The notes under the pieces are model-generated. The model did no database searches. It was not told the DNA's origin and saw nothing but the letters and a program-made list of their open reading frames with translations. From NCBI RefSeq assembly GCF_030524025.1, contig NZ_JAUNHI010000003.1, forward strand, positions 27,294 to 91,293: 64,000 bases of DNA, written 5' to 3'. The number at the start of each line of letters is the position of its first letter. Position 1 is the first letter of the stretch. Source of the stretch: Actinomyces sp. (lineage in GTDB: Bacteria; Actinomycetota; Actinomycetes; Actinomycetales; Actinomycetaceae). The position numbers and the translations under genes are program-made. Positions 11,767-20,122 of this stretch are shown in pieces.

Positions 11767-12615
11767 ATGTCGACCACCGACTCTTCACACGCCGGCGCCC
11801 CCGCCACGCTGGCAGGACAACGCCGGGTGCGGGTCCACCACCTCTCGCAGGCCAAGGCCCGCGGCGAGCAGATCGTCATGCTCACCGCTTACGACGCCGT
11901 CACCGCACGGATCCTGGACGAGGCGGGCACCGACGTGCTCCTGGTCGGGGACTCGATGGGCAATGTCATGCTCGGCCACGGCTCCACGCTGCCGGTGACC
12001 CTGGAGGAGATGCTCGTGGCCACCCGGTCGGTGGCCCGCGCCACCGACCGGGCGTTGGTGCTGGCCGACCTGCCCTTCGGCAGCTACGAGGCGGGCCCGG
12101 AGCAGGCCCTGGCCAGCGCCGTCAGCCTGGTCAAGGCCGGCGCCCACGCCGTCAAGATCGAGGGCGGAGCGGTGCGCGCGGCCTCGGTGCGTCTCATCAC
12201 CGAGGCGGGCATCCCGGTCTTCGGGCACATCGGGTTCACGCCGCAGTCGGTCAACGCCCTCGGCGGCTACCGGGTGCAGGGCCGCGGCGAGGGCGCCGCC
12301 GACGCGCTGGTGGCCGACGCCCTGGCCCTGACGGAGGCCGGTGCGGTGGCCTTCATCGTCGAGATGGTCCCCGAGTCCGTCGGCGCCCGGATCACCCACG
12401 AGTGCCCCGTGCCCGTCATCGGCATCGGGGCCGGCGCCCGGTGCGACGGCCAGGTCCTCGTGTGGACGGACATGGCCGGCATGTCCCAGTGGTCGCCGCG
12501 CTTCGCCGCGCGTTTCGGTCAGGTGGGGCAGGCGCTGCGCGAGGCCGCCCAGTCCTACGGGGAGGCGGTCCGGGAGGGCTCCTTCCCCGCCCAGGAGCAC
12601 TGGTTCGACTCCTGA
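11767..12615 (+). CDS. panB: 3-methyl-2-oxobutanoate hydroxymethyltransferase
   Basis: RBS GGAGGG then ATG. MLTAYDAVTARILDEAGTDVLLVGDSMGNVMLGH matches the PanB core. An alternative upstream start lies at 11704. Confidence 0.9.
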   Translation: MSTTDSSHAGAPATLAGQRRVRVHHLSQAKARGEQIVMLTAYDAVTARILDEAGTDVLLVGDSMGNVMLGHGSTLPVTLEEMLVATRSVARATDRALVLADLPFGSYEAGPEQALASAVSLVKAGAHAVKIEGGAVRAASVRLITEAGIPVFGHIGFTPQSVNALGGYRVQGRGEGAADALVADALALTEAGAVAFIVEMVPESVGARITHECPVPVIGIGAGARCDGQVLVWTDMAGMSQWSPRFAARFGQVGQALREAAQSYGEAVREGSFPAQEHWFDS

Positions 12616-12655
12616 GGCCCGCCACGACGACGGGCAAGGGCCCTCCCGGACCGGG

Positions 12656-13387
12656 TCACAGGCCCTCGGGGTGGTCCCAGTCGATCGGGACGGGGACGAC
12701 GCCCTCGAAGGCGGAGGTGATGTCCTTGGAGGGGAAGGTCACCCCCTGGTCCGCGGGGTCGTGGGCCCAGCGGATGAGTGTGGGCGCCCCGTCGGGGGCG
12801 GTGGGGTCGACCTCGACGCTCGTGATCGCGCAGTTGGCCATCGGGGCCCAGCCATAGACCTCCAGGCCGATCCAGCGGCTCATGATCGTCATGATCGTCA
12901 TGCCGTGGGAGACGATGAGCACCTCCTCGTCGTCTCCGCGCCCCTCGGCCACCGCCGCACGCAGGTCCGCCATGACCCGGGCGATGGCGCCGTCGATGTC
13001 GGCCAGGTAGTCGCGGGCGTGGATCCCCTCGGGCGCCCCGGGATGGGTCCCGGCCAGGACCGGCGGCAGGTGCTCCTCAGCGGGCAGGGCGGCGTGCATC
13101 TCGGGGTCCGGCCCACCGTCGTAGATGCCGTAGTTGTACTCCCGCAGGCCGATGAGGTTGACCGGCACGACCTCCGGGTGGGGCTCCAGGAGGATCGAGC
13201 CCGTCTCCTGGACCCTGCCCTGGGGGCTGAGGTAGGCCCGCGTCAAGGGGGTGCCGGCCAGGTAGTCGCGGCAGATCTCGACCCCTTTGCGTCCGTCCGG
13301 GGTCAGGGGGGAGTCGGCGGCGCCCTGGGTGCGACGCTGCTCGTTGAGGACGGTGCGACCGTGTCGCACAAAGTGCATCTTCGCCAT
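12656..13387 (-). CDS. histidine phosphatase family protein
   Basis: Start taken at [22 protein letters not shown] (RHG motif). The upstream part of the 292-aa ORF is Arg/Pro-rich and was judged non-coding. Confidence 0.75.
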
Positions 13388-13494
13388 GTGGTCATCGTAT
13401 GACAGGTCCTGCGCCGAGGGGCGCGATCGGCGGCGCCGGACCGGGGCGGGGCGGCGCGGGGCGGGCACCGCCCGCACGCTCCTATGCTGTGGCC

Positions 13495-14385
13495 ATGAGT
13501 TCCTCGATCCGAGCCCTGGCCGACCGTGCACCACGTGGGACCCTGACCAAGGGGGAGCTGGGGCCGCCGCGGCGCGTGCCCGGCTCGATCCCGCGCCCCG
13601 AGTACATGTTCCACGACGGGCCCGAACGGGTGACCGCCTCCGACGTCAAGAACGCCGAGACCATTGAGCGCATCCGGGCCGCGGGGCGGCTGGCGGCCCG
13701 TGCCCTGGCCGAGGCTGCCGCGGCGATCGCACCGGGGGTGACCACCGATGAGCTCGACCGCATCGCCCACGAGTACCTGTGCGACCACGGCGCCTACCCC
13801 TCGTGCCTGGGCTACATGGGTTACCCCAAGTCGATCTGCACCTCGGTCAACGAGGTCATCTGCCACGGCATCCCGGACTCCACCGTGCTCAATGAGGGCG
13901 ACCTCATCAACATCGACGTCACCGCCTACCTCGACGGCGTACACGGGGACACCAACGCCACCTTCCCCGTCGGTGAGGTCGACGAGGAGACGGCCCTGCT
14001 CATCTCCCGTACCCGCACCGCCATGGAGCGCGGCATCCGCGCTGTGCGGCCGGGGCGGGAGGTCAACGTCATCGGACGGGTCATCGAGGCCTACGCCCGG
14101 CGCTTCGACTACGGAGTCGTGCGCGACTACACCGGCCACGGAGTGGGTGAGGCCTTCCACTCCGGTCTCATCATCCCCCACTACGACGCCGCCCCCCTGC
14201 ACGACGAGATCATGGAGGTGGGCATGGTCTTCACCATCGAGCCGATGCTCACCCTGGGCGGCATCGACTGGGAGCAGTGGGACGACGGGTGGACGGTGGT
14301 GACGCGGGACCGCTCCCGCACCGCACAGTTCGAGCACACCCTCGTGGTCACCGAGGACGGCGCCGAGGTGCTCACCGTGCCCTGA
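13495..14385 (+). CDS. map: type I methionine aminopeptidase (MapB-like, with N-terminal extension)
   Basis: Pita-bread fold motifs ([10 protein letters not shown], metal-ligand Asp/His/Glu pattern). An N-terminal extension [11 protein letters not shown] resembles MapB. Start chosen at MSSSIRAL. Confidence 0.9.
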
Positions 14386-14501
14386 GCGCGCGCAACCGTC
14401 ATGTCACCGAGTGGGACATGACGGCTCCCACCGTATACATTCAGTCGCTGGAGGGCGCTTGTCGCCGCATCCGCTCCCGTCCACCCATCCCGGAGGCCCT
14501 C

Positions 14502-15530
14502 ATGGCTCTGCGTTTCAACCCACCGCCGAACTGGCCCGCCCCGCCCGAGGGCTTCACGCCTCCGGCCGGATGGCAGCCCGACCCCGAGTGGGGCCCCGCA
14601 CCCGACGGATGGCAGTTGTGGGTGGAGGACTCCTCCCCCGGCGCCACTGCCGGTTCCGCGCCCCAGGTGCCCTCCGCCCCCGACACGGGCTGGGCCCCCA
14701 CGCAGGCCGTGCCGACTCAGCCCTCGGCACCGTCGGTGGGATCGGCGGCGGCTGCGGGCGCCTACGCAGCCTCCGGCTATGCCCAGCCCCAGCAGCCGGC
14801 GTATCAGGCCCAGGCCGCGTCCTACCCCCAGTCACCGACTCCCTACCAGGCCCAGGCCGCGTCCTACCCGTCCCAGGGGCAGTGGCAGCAGGTCGGCGGG
14901 GGCGCCGCGGCGGCCGCCCCCACTCCGGTGACCAAGCAGTGGTGGTTCTGGGCGATCATCGTCGGACTGGTCGTCATCCTGGTCGTCAGCCTCGTCGTCG
15001 TGCTGGCCAACTCCGGCTCCGACCCGACTGCGGGACCCACGGAGTCGACCACGCCGGACAGTGTTGTCACCGAGGAGCCGACTAAGACGCCGACGGGGGG
15101 CGGCCTGGGGACCAAGACCGCCAACCCGACGCCCCCAGCCCCGGCGCCGACGACTGCGGGTACGACGACGTTCACGACGGACCTGCAGCTCGAAGACTGC
15201 TTCACCCTCGAGGACCCGAACGCCACGCAGGTCTCGACCGTCATCGTGGTCGACTGCGCCGAGCCCCATCACTTCGAGGTCTTCCTGCTCCACACCCTGA
15301 CCGATGCCGCGCTGCCCGACAGCACGACGTTTGACCAGTACGCCAAGGACATATGCGTCCCCGCCTTCAATGAGTACGTCGGGCGCGACTACTCCACCTC
15401 GATCTACGGCATTACGACGCTCACTCCCACGAATGAGTCGTGGAACTCGGGCGACCGCATACTCAAGTGCCTGATAACCAGCCTCGATGACTCCGAGCTG
15501 ACCGGCTCGGCCAAGGGCACGGGCCAGTAG
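14502..15530 (+). CDS. single-pass membrane protein paralog A: DUF2510-like N-term motif, Pro/Ala/Gln-rich linker, TM, C-terminal septum-formation-family-like domain
   Basis: GGAGG RBS then ATG. The N-terminus MALRFNPPPNWPAPPEGFTPPAGWQPDPEWGPAPDGWQLWVEDS matches the downstream paralog. TM is WWFWAIIVGLVVILVVSLVVVLA. The C-terminal DCFTLED..VVDCAEPHHFEVF pattern resembles the Septum_form family; this is inference from memory. Confidence 0.7.
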   Translation: MALRFNPPPNWPAPPEGFTPPAGWQPDPEWGPAPDGWQLWVEDSSPGATAGSAPQVPSAPDTGWAPTQAVPTQPSAPSVGSAAAAGAYAASGYAQPQQPAYQAQAASYPQSPTPYQAQAASYPSQGQWQQVGGGAAAAAPTPVTKQWWFWAIIVGLVVILVVSLVVVLANSGSDPTAGPTESTTPDSVVTEEPTKTPTGGGLGTKTANPTPPAPAPTTAGTTTFTTDLQLEDCFTLEDPNATQVSTVIVVDCAEPHHFEVFLLHTLTDAALPDSTTFDQYAKDICVPAFNEYVGRDYSTSIYGITTLTPTNESWNSGDRILKCLITSLDDSELTGSAKGTGQ

Positions 15531-15696
15531 GCGCCCCCGGTGCGCGAGCCCACGCCCGAGGACGCGCGCACCGGGAAGCACTCCCCATCCATGCCGCCCG
15601 TCAGGCGTGTGCCACTGCCCCCATGGCGTGTACATTCGTGACCGGACTGCATGACGCGTCACAACCGTTCGCCTCGTCGTCTCCCGGAGGTTCCAC

Positions 15697-16869
15697 ATGG
15701 CTCTGCGTTTCAACCCACCGCCGAACTGGCCCACTCCGCCTGACGGCTTCAACCCCCCGGCAGGCTGGCAGCCGGATCCGGCATGGGGGCCAGCGCCGGA
15801 GGGCTGGCAGCTGTGGGTCGAGGACTCGGGCACCGCTCCGGGCACGGGATCCGCTCCTCAGGCCGCCTCGGCTCCCGACGCCGGGTGGGCGCCGACGCGG
15901 GCGGTGTCGACGGGGTCCTCCCCGGTGGCCGACCCTACCGGGCAGTCCGCTGCAGCGCCGGCGGGAGACTACTCGGCGACTCCCATGGGCGGCATGGGCG
16001 GCTCGGCCCCGGTCGCGGGTTCGGCTCCTGTGGGCGGCTCCGCCCCCATGGTCGGCTCGGCCGCCTCCTCCGCGCCCTATGTGGGAGCCGACTACGCGCA
16101 GTCGCCGACCCCGTACCACAGCATGCCCGCCGGTGGTGGGCAGGTGCCGCCTCCGGGCAGTTGGCAGGCCGGAGCTCCGGTGCCCGGTGGCCCGGGAGCC
16201 TCCAAGCCTTTGGCCAAGCAGTGGTGGGTGTGGGCAATCATCGTCGGCATCGTGCTCGTCCTGGTCATCGGCATCGTGGCGCTCCTGGCCCGGGGTGGTT
16301 CGGACAGCAGCTCCAGTGGTGCGACGACGCGCAGCGCGACGCGGCAGACCTCCTCCGCCGAGGATCCCACCACCGACGCCGAAGCCCCGGAGGATGGGGA
16401 GGGCCTGTCGGAGTCCAACCCCATCGACCCCTCTCAGAGGGTCCTGACTTTCGCCGCGGACAAGTATGCGACCGACCCGAACGCCTCGATCGATGTCAAC
16501 TTCGGGGAAGTCAACTGGAACGGTGCGCAGTCCCTCAAGGACAGCTTCGCCGCTGACGGCTTGGAGACGTGGTATGAGGATCCGCCCGCCGGCAAGGTCT
16601 ATCTCCGCCTCTATGTCGAGGTCACCTACCACGGATCGGGACAGTTCAGCTCCTACGACCTGAGCATTGACTACGTCAACGGGGGCAACACCGTCGAGGC
16701 GGAGTACAGCCTCGCCTCGGACGAGTTCCGCAACCAGGACATGCCGCGTGACGGCGGCAAGGCTGCCGGCTTCGTCACCTTCGTCGTCGACGAGAGCCTG
16801 GCCAACTCCGGGGCGTTTGCCGTCACGGCCTTCTACGACTCCGAGGAGTACTACGTGTCGGCGGAGTGA
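15697..16869 (+). CDS. single-pass membrane protein paralog B: same N-terminal motif, TM, C-terminal DUF4352-like domain
   Basis: GGAGG RBS. The first 36 nt of the CDS are identical to paralog A. TM is WWVWAIIVGIVLVLVIGIVALLA. The C-terminal beta-rich domain (YLRLYVEVTYHGSG..AGFVTFVVDESLANSGAFAVTAFYD) is DUF4352-like. Confidence 0.7.
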   Translation: MALRFNPPPNWPTPPDGFNPPAGWQPDPAWGPAPEGWQLWVEDSGTAPGTGSAPQAASAPDAGWAPTRAVSTGSSPVADPTGQSAAAPAGDYSATPMGGMGGSAPVAGSAPVGGSAPMVGSAASSAPYVGADYAQSPTPYHSMPAGGGQVPPPGSWQAGAPVPGGPGASKPLAKQWWVWAIIVGIVLVLVIGIVALLARGGSDSSSSGATTRSATRQTSSAEDPTTDAEAPEDGEGLSESNPIDPSQRVLTFAADKYATDPNASIDVNFGEVNWNGAQSLKDSFAADGLETWYEDPPAGKVYLRLYVEVTYHGSGQFSSYDLSIDYVNGGNTVEAEYSLASDEFRNQDMPRDGGKAAGFVTFVVDESLANSGAFAVTAFYDSEEYYVSAE

Positions 16870-16890
16870 CCTGACGCTCACCCAACACAG

Positions 16891-16933
16891 ATGATGGCGC
16901 CCTCCCGGTTTGTTCTGGGGAGGGCGCCATCAT
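16891..16933 (+). terminator. bidirectional terminator hairpin
   Basis: Perfect 16-bp stem ATGATGGCGCCCTCCC / GGGAGGGCGCCATCAT with an 11-nt loop. Located between the paralog B stop (16869) and the 3' end of rnpB on the opposite strand. Confidence 0.6.
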
Positions 16934-16952
16934 GTGGTGGCCGGGCAGACGT

Positions 16953-17344
<392 letters not shown>

Positions 17345-17412
17345 TACCGATCCTAACGCACCCACGGAACGGCCATCGTCCTGGCACCGGTGCAGCCGCG
17401 TAGCATCGGGCC

Positions 17413-18216
17413 GTGCTCATCCTCATCCCGCCTTCCGAGGGCAAGAGCCCGCCGAGCTGCGGGCCGTCGCTCGACCTGTACCGGCTGCTGGGCGCCGACC
17501 GGCTGACCGAGGGGCGCCGTCTGGTCATCGACGAGCTGTCGCAGGTCAGTGCCGGACCGCGGGCCGCCGAGGTGCTGGGACTGGGACCCAGGAGCGCGGC
17601 CGAGGCGCGGCTCAACCTCGTGCTGGGCTCGGCCCCCTGCGCACCGGCGCACGAGCTGTTCAGCGGTGTCCTCTACGACGCGGCCGGGCTGGCGGTCCTG
17701 GCGGCCGAGCCGGCGACGCGAGAGGTGCTCGAGGGCCACGTCGTCATCTTCTCGGGATTGTGGGGGGCGCTGCGCCCCACTGACCCGGTCCCGGACCACC
17801 GGCTGTCGATGGCGGTGTCCTTGCCGAGCACCGGCAGGCTGTCATCTTTCTGGCGTGCTCCCCTCGCACCGCTCCTCAACGACCGGGCACGGCGGGCAGG
17901 GCTGGTCGTCGACTGCCGCTCGGGGGCCTACACGCCTGCGTGGACGCCGCCCGGCACCGGGGAGGTCGAGCGGGTGACCGTCCGGGTGATGGCACTGCGA
18001 GCCGACGGATCCCGGGTGGTGGTGTCGCACGCGGCCAAGCACACGCGCGGCCTGCTCGTCGGGATGCTGGTCCGGGCCCTGGGATGCGGGGATCTCGAGA
18101 CGGGCGCCTCGGTCGAGGATGTCGCGGCCTTGGCGCGGGAGGTGCCGGGGCTGCGCGGTGCCGAGCTCGGCGAGCCCGACCGCCGGGGAGGACGGGTCCT
18201 CACGCTCGTCGTCTGA
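17413..18216 (+). CDS. yaaA: peroxide stress protein YaaA (UPF0246/DUF328)
   Basis: GTG start. MLILIPPSEGK is a typical YaaA N-terminus. About 267 aa. Confidence 0.8.
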   Translation: MLILIPPSEGKSPPSCGPSLDLYRLLGADRLTEGRRLVIDELSQVSAGPRAAEVLGLGPRSAAEARLNLVLGSAPCAPAHELFSGVLYDAAGLAVLAAEPATREVLEGHVVIFSGLWGALRPTDPVPDHRLSMAVSLPSTGRLSSFWRAPLAPLLNDRARRAGLVVDCRSGAYTPAWTPPGTGEVERVTVRVMALRADGSRVVVSHAAKHTRGLLVGMLVRALGCGDLETGASVEDVAALAREVPGLRGAELGEPDRRGGRVLTLVV

Positions 18217-18239
18217 CCGTCGGGCTCTCCGGCGGGGTC

Positions 18240-18974
18240 TCAGAGGTCCATGCGCACGATGATGACGTCGTTCTCCTCGGCGTGGAGGACCGTGTCGGCG
18301 GGCGCCGCGGCGATCCTGGCGTGCTCGGCCGGACTGATCTCGATGGTGGCACCCTCGAGGCGACGGCCGTGCAGCGCCACCGCACCCAGGCCTCCGGTGC
18401 GCGCTCGGACCGCGTCATACTCCCCCAGGAGCGCGGGGCTGATCCGGGCGACGAGCTCGTCCCGCCTGGCGCGCAGCCCGGCGGTCTCCTGGTCGATGCG
18501 GGCGAACTCGGCGTCCCGGACCGTGGTCAGCTCCCGGCCCGCAGCCCGGATCTCCTGCTCCTGGGCGGCCAGTGCCTCGACCCGGTCCTGGGCGGCCTCG
18601 ACGGCCTCGATCGCGGTGATCTGCTTGTCCTCCAGCACCGCCTGCCGACGGCCGAGCTGGTCGATCTCGCCCTGGATGGCCGACAGGTCGCGGGCGGCGG
18701 CTGTGCCGGCGCTCAGCCGCTCGCGCAGGGTCTGTGCCCGGCGCACGACCTGGTCCACCTCGGTCTCGCAGTGGGTGGCCTCCGCCTTGGCGTCGGTCAG
18801 GGCCGCTGCGGCGAGCACGGCCTCGCGCTTGTTGTCCTTGAGGCGCTTGATCGTGTGCTCGATGTGGGACAGCGCGGGCAGGTGGGCGCGCTCATGACCC
18901 AGCCGGGCCAGCTGGGAGTCGAGCTGCTGGAGGTCGATGAGCAGTCGCTGCTCGGTGATGGGTGCGCTCGTCAC
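18240..18974 (-). CDS. coiled-coil protein of the DUF164 / Rv2229c family (zinc-ribbon cysteines absent)
   Basis: Long heptad-like coiled coil (LQQLDSQLARLGHERAHL...). Position is syntenic with Mtb Rv2229c, next to Nif3. The C-terminus lacks CxxC pairs. Confidence 0.65.
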   Translation of the reverse strand: MTSAPITEQRLLIDLQQLDSQLARLGHERAHLPALSHIEHTIKRLKDNKREAVLAAAALTDAKAEATHCETEVDQVVRRAQTLRERLSAGTAAARDLSAIQGEIDQLGRRQAVLEDKQITAIEAVEAAQDRVEALAAQEQEIRAAGRELTTVRDAEFARIDQETAGLRARRDELVARISPALLGEYDAVRARTGGLGAVALHGRRLEGATIEISPAEHARIAAAPADTVLHAEENDVIIVRMDL

Positions 18975-19033
18975 GGCGGGAGTCCTTCACTGGCTGTGTG
19001 CTGGCTGTCGGGTGGCGGTCTGGTTCGGCCGGG

Positions 19034-19918
19034 TCATGTGGTGCCGGTGCTCAGGCGCAGCGCCCAGGGGTCGGTAACGACCCGGGAGACGTGCACCTGG
19101 AGTCTATGCCCGCAGGCTGCGGCTGCGGCCTCCAGTGCGCGGGCCAGGGGCTCCAGCCCTACCCACTCGGTTGCCCAGTGCGTGCCGCACAGCAGGTAGG
19201 GCCGGCCGGCCTCAAGGTGTTCACCGGCCGGGTGGTGGCGCAGGTCGGCGGTGAGGAAGACGTCGGCGCCGGCTTGACGGGCGGCACCGAGGAGTGAGTC
19301 ACCGGCGCCTCCGCTGACCGCGACCCGATCCACGGTGGCCTGCGGGTCTCCGCCGACGAGCAGGCCGGGGACGGAGTCGGGCAGGGCACGGGCCACGGTC
19401 TGCGCGAACTGGGCCAGGGTGGTGGGAGCCGGCAGGCGGCCGAGACGGCCGATGCCCTGGGAGGGGTCGGCCGCATGGGGCACGAGGGGTACGACGTCGT
19501 CGAGCCCGACCACCTGGGCCAGGGCGTCGGCGACGCCTCCGTGGGCCGAGTCGAGTGTCGTGTGCGCGTTGGCCAGGGCGATGCCGGCGCGCACGAGGCG
19601 GTGGACGACCCGCCCCTTGGGGTCGGCGGCGCTGACATGGTCGGTGCCGCGCAGGTAGAGGGGGTGGTGGGTGATGACCATGTCGGCACCGCGCTCGATG
19701 GCCTCGTCGACGACGGCGGCCACCGGGTCGACGGCCAGGAGCAGGACGCTCACGGGCTCGGCGGGGTCGCCGCAGATAAGGCGGTTGGAGTCCCAGGGCT
19801 CAGCGAGCTCCGGCGGCGCCACGCCGCGCAGGAGGGTCTCGACCCCGCCGACGGTCAGGGCGGCCTGCGGGACCGACCCGGTGCTCTCGGGCGCGACCGC
19901 GCCTCCGGTCTGGCTCAT
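19034..19918 (-). CDS. Nif3-like dinuclear metal center protein (Rv2230c-like)
   Basis: Start at MSQTGG. MVITHHPLYLRG and the C-terminal histidine/glutamate ligands are typical of the NIF3/YqfO family. Confidence 0.8.
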   Translation of the reverse strand: MSQTGGAVAPESTGSVPQAALTVGGVETLLRGVAPPELAEPWDSNRLICGDPAEPVSVLLLAVDPVAAVVDEAIERGADMVITHHPLYLRGTDHVSAADPKGRVVHRLVRAGIALANAHTTLDSAHGGVADALAQVVGLDDVVPLVPHAADPSQGIGRLGRLPAPTTLAQFAQTVARALPDSVPGLLVGGDPQATVDRVAVSGGAGDSLLGAARQAGADVFLTADLRHHPAGEHLEAGRPYLLCGTHWATEWVGLEPLARALEAAAAACGHRLQVHVSRVVTDPWALRLSTGTT

Positions 19919-20122
19919 GGGGCCAAGGTTAATAGGCGTCGCCGACCGGCGGCGACGAGTAGGCAGTGACGGACCGCGCGGCCGCCGGATCATCTAATAG
20001 GTCACAAAATGGCTACGAAATGGCTTCGATTCTCATAGGCTGGGAGCATAGGTCGAGGACTCACGTCTCCCACCGACCTGCGCGAGCTCCTCATCGAGCA
20101 CCGTGCTGCGATCACGCCGTTC

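Follow-up and report, generated by a model that had tools for sequence, protein, structure and literature searches.

Here we examine two adjacent genes, gene A and gene B, in a 64,000-nt stretch of Actinomyces sp. DNA (contig NZ_JAUNHI010000003.1; this whole stretch, 71% G+C, is called the window below), together with the short Trp/Pro-rich module that both products carry at the N-terminus and the wider protein family to which this module belongs. Taken by itself, the pair is domain shuffling of an ordinary, if clean, kind; the module family, large and spread through the Actinomycetota, is the more interesting result.

One N-terminal half, two ectodomains

Genes A and B (Table 1) encode proteins that align with an E value of 1e-42 and are identical at 39 of their first 44 residues, the N-terminal module. 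In gene A this module holds 12 Pro and 5 Trp and has a net charge of -5. In both proteins about 100-130 disordered residues separate the module from a single transmembrane (TM) helix, and the motifs GWAPTQAV, QSPTPY and KQWWFW are common to the two, along with the helix itself. Past the helix and a short Ser/Thr/Pro-rich spacer, the proteins are unrelated in sequence. This confirms what the initial annotation of the locus, made from the sequence alone, had proposed: two tandem bitopic proteins that have the N-terminal module and the TM helix in common and differ in their ectodomains. An N-in/C-out topology is predicted for both, because no hydrophobic segment precedes the TM helix, Lys lies on its N-terminal side, and cysteines are confined to the ectodomain of gene A. 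We place the start of gene A at ATG 14502, since a longer open reading frame (ORF) starting with GTG at 14277 overlaps the end of map and is without a Shine-Dalgarno sequence; a CCCGGAGG block stands upstream of both genes. The orthologues of gene B keep a series of near-invariant linker motifs (AWAPTQAV, PVADPTGQSASAPSGDY, SPY...YAQSPTPY, GWQP and KQWWFW, in the cytoplasmic region 15697-16221), and the linker of gene A retains these gene B motifs apart from the PVADPTGQSA block, which is gone.

Table 1. Coordinates and properties of the features at the gene A/gene B locus (positions in the window).
Feature	Position	Strand	Description
Gene A	14502-15530	+	ORF, 342 aa; bitopic membrane protein, lineage-restricted chimeric paralogue of gene B
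Shine-Dalgarno GGAGG of gene A	14492-14496	+	Read from sequence, 5 nt before ATG 14502
Gene A N-terminal Trp/Pro-rich module	14502-14633	+	Residues 1-44; module hidden Markov model (HMM) 81.8 bits; predicted cytoplasmic
Gene A TM helix	14940-15008	+	Residues 147-169; hydrophobic stretch, alignment with gene B; KQWWFW directly before
Gene A Septum_form domain	15195-15500	+	Residues 232-333, predicted extracytoplasmic; Pfam PF13845
Gene B	15697-16869	+	ORF, 390 aa; bitopic membrane protein, syntenic in 29/29 Actinomyces loci examined
Shine-Dalgarno GGAGG of gene B	15686-15690	+	Read from sequence, 6 nt before ATG 15697
Gene B N-terminal Trp/Pro-rich module	15697-15828	+	Residues 1-44; module HMM 79.0 bits
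Gene B TM helix	16222-16290	+	Residues 176-198; AlphaFold2 helix, hydrophobic stretch
Gene B Ig-like beta-sandwich	16390-16866	+	Residues 232-390, predicted extracytoplasmic; DUF4352/MPT63-like fold (AlphaFold2, Foldseek)
GC-rich hairpin	16890-16934	n/a	17-18 bp near-perfect stem, -48 kcal/mol, z -6.1; between gene B stop and rnpB 3' end
RNase P RNA gene (rnpB)	16958-17337	-	Rfam RNaseP_bact_a, 282.9 bits, full length

The ectodomain of gene A belongs, by profile score, to the Septum_form family (PF13845), as had been suggested: the full protein scores 56.4 bits and the ectodomain alone 59.5 bits (E=4e-15 to 5e-16), against a gathering threshold of 25 bits. Coverage of the model is incomplete: of its 227 positions the match takes in 3-112, about half of the Septum_form profile. 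All four cysteines of the protein (Cys233, 252, 285 and 323) lie in this ectodomain as one four-Cys unit, and the gene A orthologue P0126 is likewise annotated with PF13845. The name of the family is an annotation, not an established function, and a search for functional literature on PF13845 or Septum_form returned none. When Protein Data Bank (PDB) sequences were searched with the ectodomain of gene A, the outcome was only noise, and a metagenome scan for the ectodomain gave 1 distant partial match; the protein search with full-length gene A was swamped by N-terminal matches and samples distant Septum_form relatives poorly.

The ectodomain of gene B presents a different picture, in which fold and family membership diverge. 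We found no match to DUF4352 (PF11611) for the full-length protein at E<=1 or for the ectodomain at E<=10, and the gathering threshold was not reached; among the orthologues, 4 of 22 have weak DUF4352 matches (best E=0.0016), and some carry the UniRef name 'DUF4352 domain-containing'. An AlphaFold2 model from the 22 orthologues predicts residues 232-390 to be a beta-sandwich, most of it having a predicted local distance difference test score (pLDDT) of about 85-97. Its top Foldseek matches in the PDB are YxkC (9a4z), 4les, YcdA (4r4g), 5bxg, MPT63 (1lmi) and YjhA (3cfu), at E values of 7e-5 to 7e-3 and probabilities of 0.99-1.00, and these structures we take to be members of DUF4352 or its superfamily. 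A profile of 15 gene B-type ectodomains matched nothing among PDB sequences at E<=10, and we found no literature on YxkC with DacA. The modelled structure thus points to an ectodomain that is DUF4352-like by fold and not by HMM membership; of the earlier assignment to a DUF4352-like domain, the fold stands and the family membership does not. Searches of PADLOC and PHROGs gave weak matches to the linker/TM region only (E>=3.6e-4), and therefore lend no support to a defence or phage family.

The N-terminal motif had also been called DUF2510-like, and here the initial annotation was mistaken. Neither 52-aa N-terminus, nor any of 83 diverse modules, matches DUF2510 (PF10708) at E<=10, while five DUF2510-type control sequences scored 41.8-57.5 bits with the same library (gathering threshold 24 bits). 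Comparison of profiles with hhalign aligns 10 columns (module 20-29, DUF2510 4-13) at 70% identity and a probability of 69%, with PPAGWQPDP of the module set against PAGWYPDP of DUF2510; the DUF2510 side of this comparison was a self-written five-sequence alignment validated against Pfam, not the Pfam seed. The similarity does not extend over the full-length profile (GWYPDP ... RYWDGxxWT). An identity of the module with DUF2510 is consequently ruled out by HMM with positive controls, and what the two have in common is a ten-residue PxGWxPDP core.

History of the locus and the identical gene starts

Gene B is found throughout the genus. Its product is 100% identical to a protein from an Actinomyces sp. 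metagenome-assembled genome (MAG; tag Q4C85_02225) and has orthologues in A. oris, A. israelii, A. viscosus, A. naeslundii, A. bovis and others, with overall identities of 41-66% among the 120 matches listed. In an alignment of 22 orthologues, identity to gene B of the window is 49-74% for the proteins as a whole, and the 44-residue module is nearly invariant. The gene order panB-map-B-(rnpB)-yaaA-CT398-like-NIF3 is kept in 29 Actinomyces loci, and in 28 of these gene B stands alone between map and rnpB; a second module gene within 3 kb occurs only in the remaining locus, L001, which is an independent Logan contig (SRR18693194). The adjacency to map is kept in Actinomyces only, not in other genera, and we rejected it as a functional link.

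Gene A, on the other hand, is rare. We found a single full-length homologue (P0126, 67% identity), and the order map-A-B is present in the window and L001 only, with both ORFs intact. The large protein collection that we searched does not contain the exact product of gene A, though it does contain that of gene B from the same MAG; gene A may be unannotated, or otherwise annotated, in the deposited entry. The A proteins of the window and L001 have the A-specific residues E29 and D35 and a QPSAPSVGSAA linker in common and group with each other, so that the duplication predates the split between these two lineages. In keeping with this, the comparison of A with B in the window gives a proportion of synonymous differences (pS) of 0.80 in codons 13-44, which is saturated, with values of 0.58 in the linker, 0.36 in the TM-proximal segment and 0 in codons 1-12. 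The ratio of nonsynonymous to synonymous substitution rates (dN/dS) in the module is 0.04 between the A orthologues of the window and L001 and 0.02 between the B orthologues; in the ectodomain the corresponding ratios are 0.57 and 0.51. This pattern indicates that both genes are functional and that the cytoplasmic head is their most constrained part. Judged by these sequence comparisons, the A/B duplication is old, and the initial annotation's view of it as recent must be given up in the face of the saturated pS in codons 13-44 and the A-specific residues held in common with L001.

That view had been drawn from the first 36 coding nucleotides, which are indeed the same in A and B; the longest exact run is even 37 nt (CATGGCTCTGCGTTTCAACCCACCGCCGAACTGGCCC, at 14501 and 15696). 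The break at the end of this run is sharp, with 0 of 12 codons differing between A and B in codons 1-12 and 20 of 32 in codons 13-44 (Fisher p=1.3e-4). A comparison of 371 sequence pairs from Actinomyces, each with at least 12 downstream codon differences, shows zero differences in codons 1-12 for three pairs only, those formed by A and B of the window and A of L001. The A gene of L001 carries the same 36 nt, B of L001 differs at 3 positions, and genes of other species (L014, L016, L018 and L021) are identical to the start stretch at 35 of 36 positions, which places it close to the genus consensus. Across the genus, codon differences per codon amount to 0.33 in codons 1-12 and 0.48 in codons 13-44. 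Since the identity extends to A of L001, and nearly so to four other species, it is no sign of recency. The likely explanation is either a near-consensus start retained under constraint at the nucleotide level or a very short conversion tract. An RNA structure common to the 5' regions of A and B was not significant (z of -0.7 and -1.7), and neither sigma-70-like promoters nor T-tract terminators were found in 14300-17000.

Gene conversion over a short tract (~37 bp) would keep the two starts identical through concerted evolution at the 5' end only, and of the two events that the initial annotation had read from the 5' identity, duplication or conversion, it is the one that survives. The contrast between codons 1-12 and the 32 that follow speaks for it, as do the restriction of the pattern to three of the sequences compared and the lower pS of the TM-proximal segment relative to the linker. 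We nonetheless rate it as rather doubtful: A of L001, from a different organism, has the same 36 nt with B of L001 3 positions off, which ancestral retention explains equally well; the 35/36 identity in four other species marks the sequence as near the genus consensus; and the tract would be very short for RecA-mediated conversion. Far less can be said for recent duplication, or an artefact of assembly, as the source of the 5' identity, with gene A decaying or artificial. The exact 37-nt repeat, its two copies separated by 1,195 nt on the same contig, might raise this suspicion, as might the missing gene A protein, yet the identity stops after 37 nt, and the following 32 codons have diverged to saturation. 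Moreover, the same A-B tandem with intact ORFs stands in the independent assembly L001, and the module of A is under strong constraint (dN/dS of 0.04), its ORF intact in both lineages. A further Logan contig (L085, SRR24915803; positions 1-37), a short-read, k-mer-based product, starts precisely with the first nucleotide of the repeat, and such a break is expected if both copies are truly present. The L001 tandem, the divergence of the flanks and the selection data, all read from sequence comparison, refute this explanation, to which we would give next to no credence; assembly duplication, raised in the initial annotation as a possible undoing of its claim, is excluded on the strength of the divergent flanks and the A-B pair in L001.

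A module family across the Actinomycetota

A profile of six modules, run exhaustively against 1.84 billion cluster representatives (50%-identity clusters), matched 2,059 clusters at E<=1e-3 and 473 at E<=1e-10 across the Actinomycetota. The N-terminal motif therefore does occur on further genes: a six-frame scan of the window with the module HMM (built from 151 module copies, 44-48 positions) finds it in A and B only, but the 2,059 clusters lie beyond, and with their many C-terminal domains they bear out, at a larger scale, the early idea of one anchor with swapped ectodomains. The module starts at residue 1-3 in 115 of 146 best matches, and most full-length carriers have at least one TM helix downstream. 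This N-terminal position is preferred, not obligatory, because internal, C-terminal and tandem copies occur; 2-3 tandem copies, occasionally internal or C-terminal, were observed in P0145, P0156, P0157, P0160, P0244 and P0288. Partner domains recognized by Pfam include Lipoprotein_Ltp, PASTA, Excalibur, DUF4190, DUF4352 and Septum_form, and further TIR_2, HIRAN, SNase, GmrSD_C, WD40 and SHOCT, and many partner regions hold no Pfam domain at all. Reading individual sequences, we noted fusions to TIR_2 (P0199, P0264), HIRAN-like domains (P0192, P0288), a GmrSD_C-type nuclease (P0283) and Ltp repeats (P0165), which are domain types of anti-phage defence or superinfection exclusion and stand beside envelope domains in the family.

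A scan of one genome per species recovered at least 312 confirmed module loci. The best 80 of these fall in Actinomyces, Schaalia, Arthrobacter, Kocuria, Rothia, Brachybacterium and Cellulomonas, as well as Mycobacterium, Nocardia, Actinoplanes, Kribbella, Catenulispora and others. Two module genes with different C-terminal parts lie side by side in 20 of 84 loci, so that the A/B arrangement is a recurring pattern. Such tandem pairs were seen in Brachybacterium (L019, L022, L029, L034-L037, L040, L042, L045, L046 and L055), where a protein of 540-700 aa containing an extended acidic/Gly-rich linker precedes a membrane protein of 170-185 aa, and elsewhere in Kocuria (L007), Mycobacterium (L031) and Nocardia (L038); the partners in other genera are mostly without a Pfam domain. 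A viral origin of the module was also considered and rejected, as 5 loci in 2.9 million viral contigs were all that carried it.

Within the module, columns P20, P26, W30 and P34 are invariant, and conservation is 90% or higher at N6, P8, P9, W11, P12, P15, G17, W24, D27, P28, G36, W37 and W40. The recurrence of an aromatic residue every 6-7 positions suggests that the module was built from repeated PPxGW units. The structure that AlphaFold2 predicts from 83 sequences is compact (pLDDT 77); residues 3-5 pair with 40-42 in it, and it has no regular secondary structure outside these paired strands; neither sequence search nor Foldseek found a counterpart in the PDB. The 83 members have no consistent Pfam-A match (three unrelated single-member matches at E>=0.07) and no NCBIfam match. 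This is thus a large actinobacterial module family without a model in the Pfam and NCBIfam copies searched.

Candidate roles of the module and comparison with known systems

We favour an interpretation in which A and B would be N-in/C-out single-pass proteins built on a common cytoplasmic half, which consists of the 44-residue Trp/Pro-rich mini-domain, a disordered Pro/Ala/Ser/Gln linker with short motifs and the KQWWFW-TM helix. Gene B is the ancestral gene and would display its Ig-like (DUF4352/MPT63-type) beta-sandwich on the outside. In a single sublineage, a tandem duplication that took in the 5' two-thirds of B gave rise to gene A, in which a four-cysteine, presumably disulfide-type, Septum_form unit has taken the place of the ectodomain. 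Through the head, carriers would dock to a conserved cytoplasmic partner or site that they have in common, and A and B would thereby place two different ectodomains at the same location. To this explanation as a whole (shared half, duplication from B to A with an ectodomain swap, and a head acting as a cytoplasmic docking module) we assign a probability of roughly 0.55. Its architecture, evolutionary history and pattern of selection come directly from the data given above; the docking function and the partner we infer.

Several points weigh against it. The model of the module is of moderate confidence with little secondary structure, and the module could instead be a disordered array of linear motifs; its acidity (net charge -4 to -5) and its wealth of polyproline suit other roles as well. 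In addition, the topology was deduced from features of the sequence, and the donor of the Septum_form segment of gene A was not found. A bolder form of the docking idea, possible but distinctly tentative, makes the head an undescribed, autonomously folding domain that would serve as a common address tag to one cytoplasmic hub, for instance an envelope or division scaffold. The carriers so recruited would be DUF4352-like, Septum_form, PASTA and Ltp envelope proteins together with TIR, HIRAN and nuclease effectors, and A and B would then amount to a natural experiment in which one address is combined with two ectodomains.

Other roles can be conceived for the N-terminus. Translation through polyproline depends on elongation factor P (EF-P), and it is possible to see in the Pro-rich start a device acting in translation, by which EF-P-dependent synthesis would throttle the production of envelope proteins and constraint on the initiation region would account for the conserved 36 nt. 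Both genes encode PPP at codons 7-9 (14520-14528 in A, 15715-15723 in B), with four more PP dipeptides within the first 35 codons, so their translation should be strongly EF-P dependent. The density of Pro (12 in 44 residues, PPP from codon 7), the almost constant placement of the module at the extreme N-terminus and the genus-wide shortage of codon differences in codons 1-12 all agree with a translational role. Stalling, however, gives no reason for the at least 90% conservation of W11, G17, W24, D27, W30, G36, W37 and W40, and a module that also occurs internally, at the C-terminus and in 2-3 tandem copies (P0145, P0244, P0288) is difficult to reconcile with it; the first 12 codons, moreover, vary synonymously between species, and the 5' regions have no significant RNA structure in common. 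We therefore consider a translational role unlikely. Quite unlikely, in our estimation, is a peripheral anchor at the membrane interface of the cytoplasmic leaflet, indolicidin-like in character, that would tether soluble partners and orient bitopic proteins. Trp favours membrane interfaces, and the module does offer 5-7 Trp, one every 6-7 residues with Pro between; it is also fused to soluble domains without a TM helix (P0192, P0199). Set against this are the net charge of -4 to -5, which disfavours binding to anionic actinobacterial membranes, the ~100-130 disordered residues that part the module from the membrane helix in A and B, and the TM helix that most carriers already possess. The docking module thus remains the interpretation that we prefer.

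Small N-terminal cytoplasmic modules are common on actinobacterial single-pass membrane proteins; here is a family of more than 2,000 clusters, in many genera, under very strong purifying selection (dN/dS of 0.02-0.04). The defined module offers a 44-residue bait for a binding partner, and hence for learning how envelope proteins are positioned or regulated. In the genetically tractable A. oris, one copy of gene B was found, which stands at the conserved panB-map locus. As a pair, A and B document domain shuffling directly: after an old duplication the cytoplasmic half stayed tightly constrained and the ectodomain was exchanged. Three corrections to annotation follow as well: DUF2510 is the wrong label for the module, the likeness of gene B to DUF4352 lies in its predicted fold only, and the match of gene A to Septum_form takes in half of the model.

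As for the surroundings of the pair, rnpB lies immediately downstream of gene B and convergent with it, and the listed plus-strand ORFs at 16891-17783 that overlap it are spurious. The intervening GC-rich hairpin, which is without a T-tract, is probably a bidirectional terminator. Long antisense or out-of-frame ORFs elsewhere in 12000-20000 (e.g., 15601-16881 on the minus strand, 426 aa) are typical artefacts of DNA of such high G+C content.

Among known systems, the closest to the module in kind is DUF2510, which is likewise short, Trp-containing and N-terminal on actinobacterial proteins and has the same PxGWxPDP core. DUF2510 also precedes a TM helix and varied ectodomains, and the layout of the A/B pair resembles that of actinobacterial DUF2510-TM-ectodomain proteins, yet the pair fails membership of DUF2510. 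The two differ in length (~30 aa for DUF2510, 43-44 aa for the module) and in construction, the module apparently consisting of repeated PPxGW units without the RYWDGxxWT half of DUF2510; a literature search on DUF2510 or on motif strings of the module found none. With regard to the ectodomains, gene A presents the DC...VDC..PH..E pattern and the four Cys of Septum_form and differs from that family in the truncated extent of its match. The predicted fold of the gene B ectodomain is that of B. subtilis YjhA, YcdA and YxkC, B. anthracis 4les and M. tuberculosis MPT63, a group with which it has only 10-15% sequence identity.

The nearest parallel for gene B as a whole is perhaps Mpr, the multicopy phage resistance protein of M. 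smegmatis, which is membrane-anchored and has an unstructured N-terminal region of ~80 residues, a TM segment and, at the C-terminus, a DUF4352 domain responsible for oligomerisation, and for which nuclease and nucleotide-hydrolysis activities have been reported (PMC12596739). The overall layout, as described, is the same as that of gene B. Gene B differs from Mpr in its setting, a housekeeping neighbourhood (panB-map-B-rnpB) and not a defence island.

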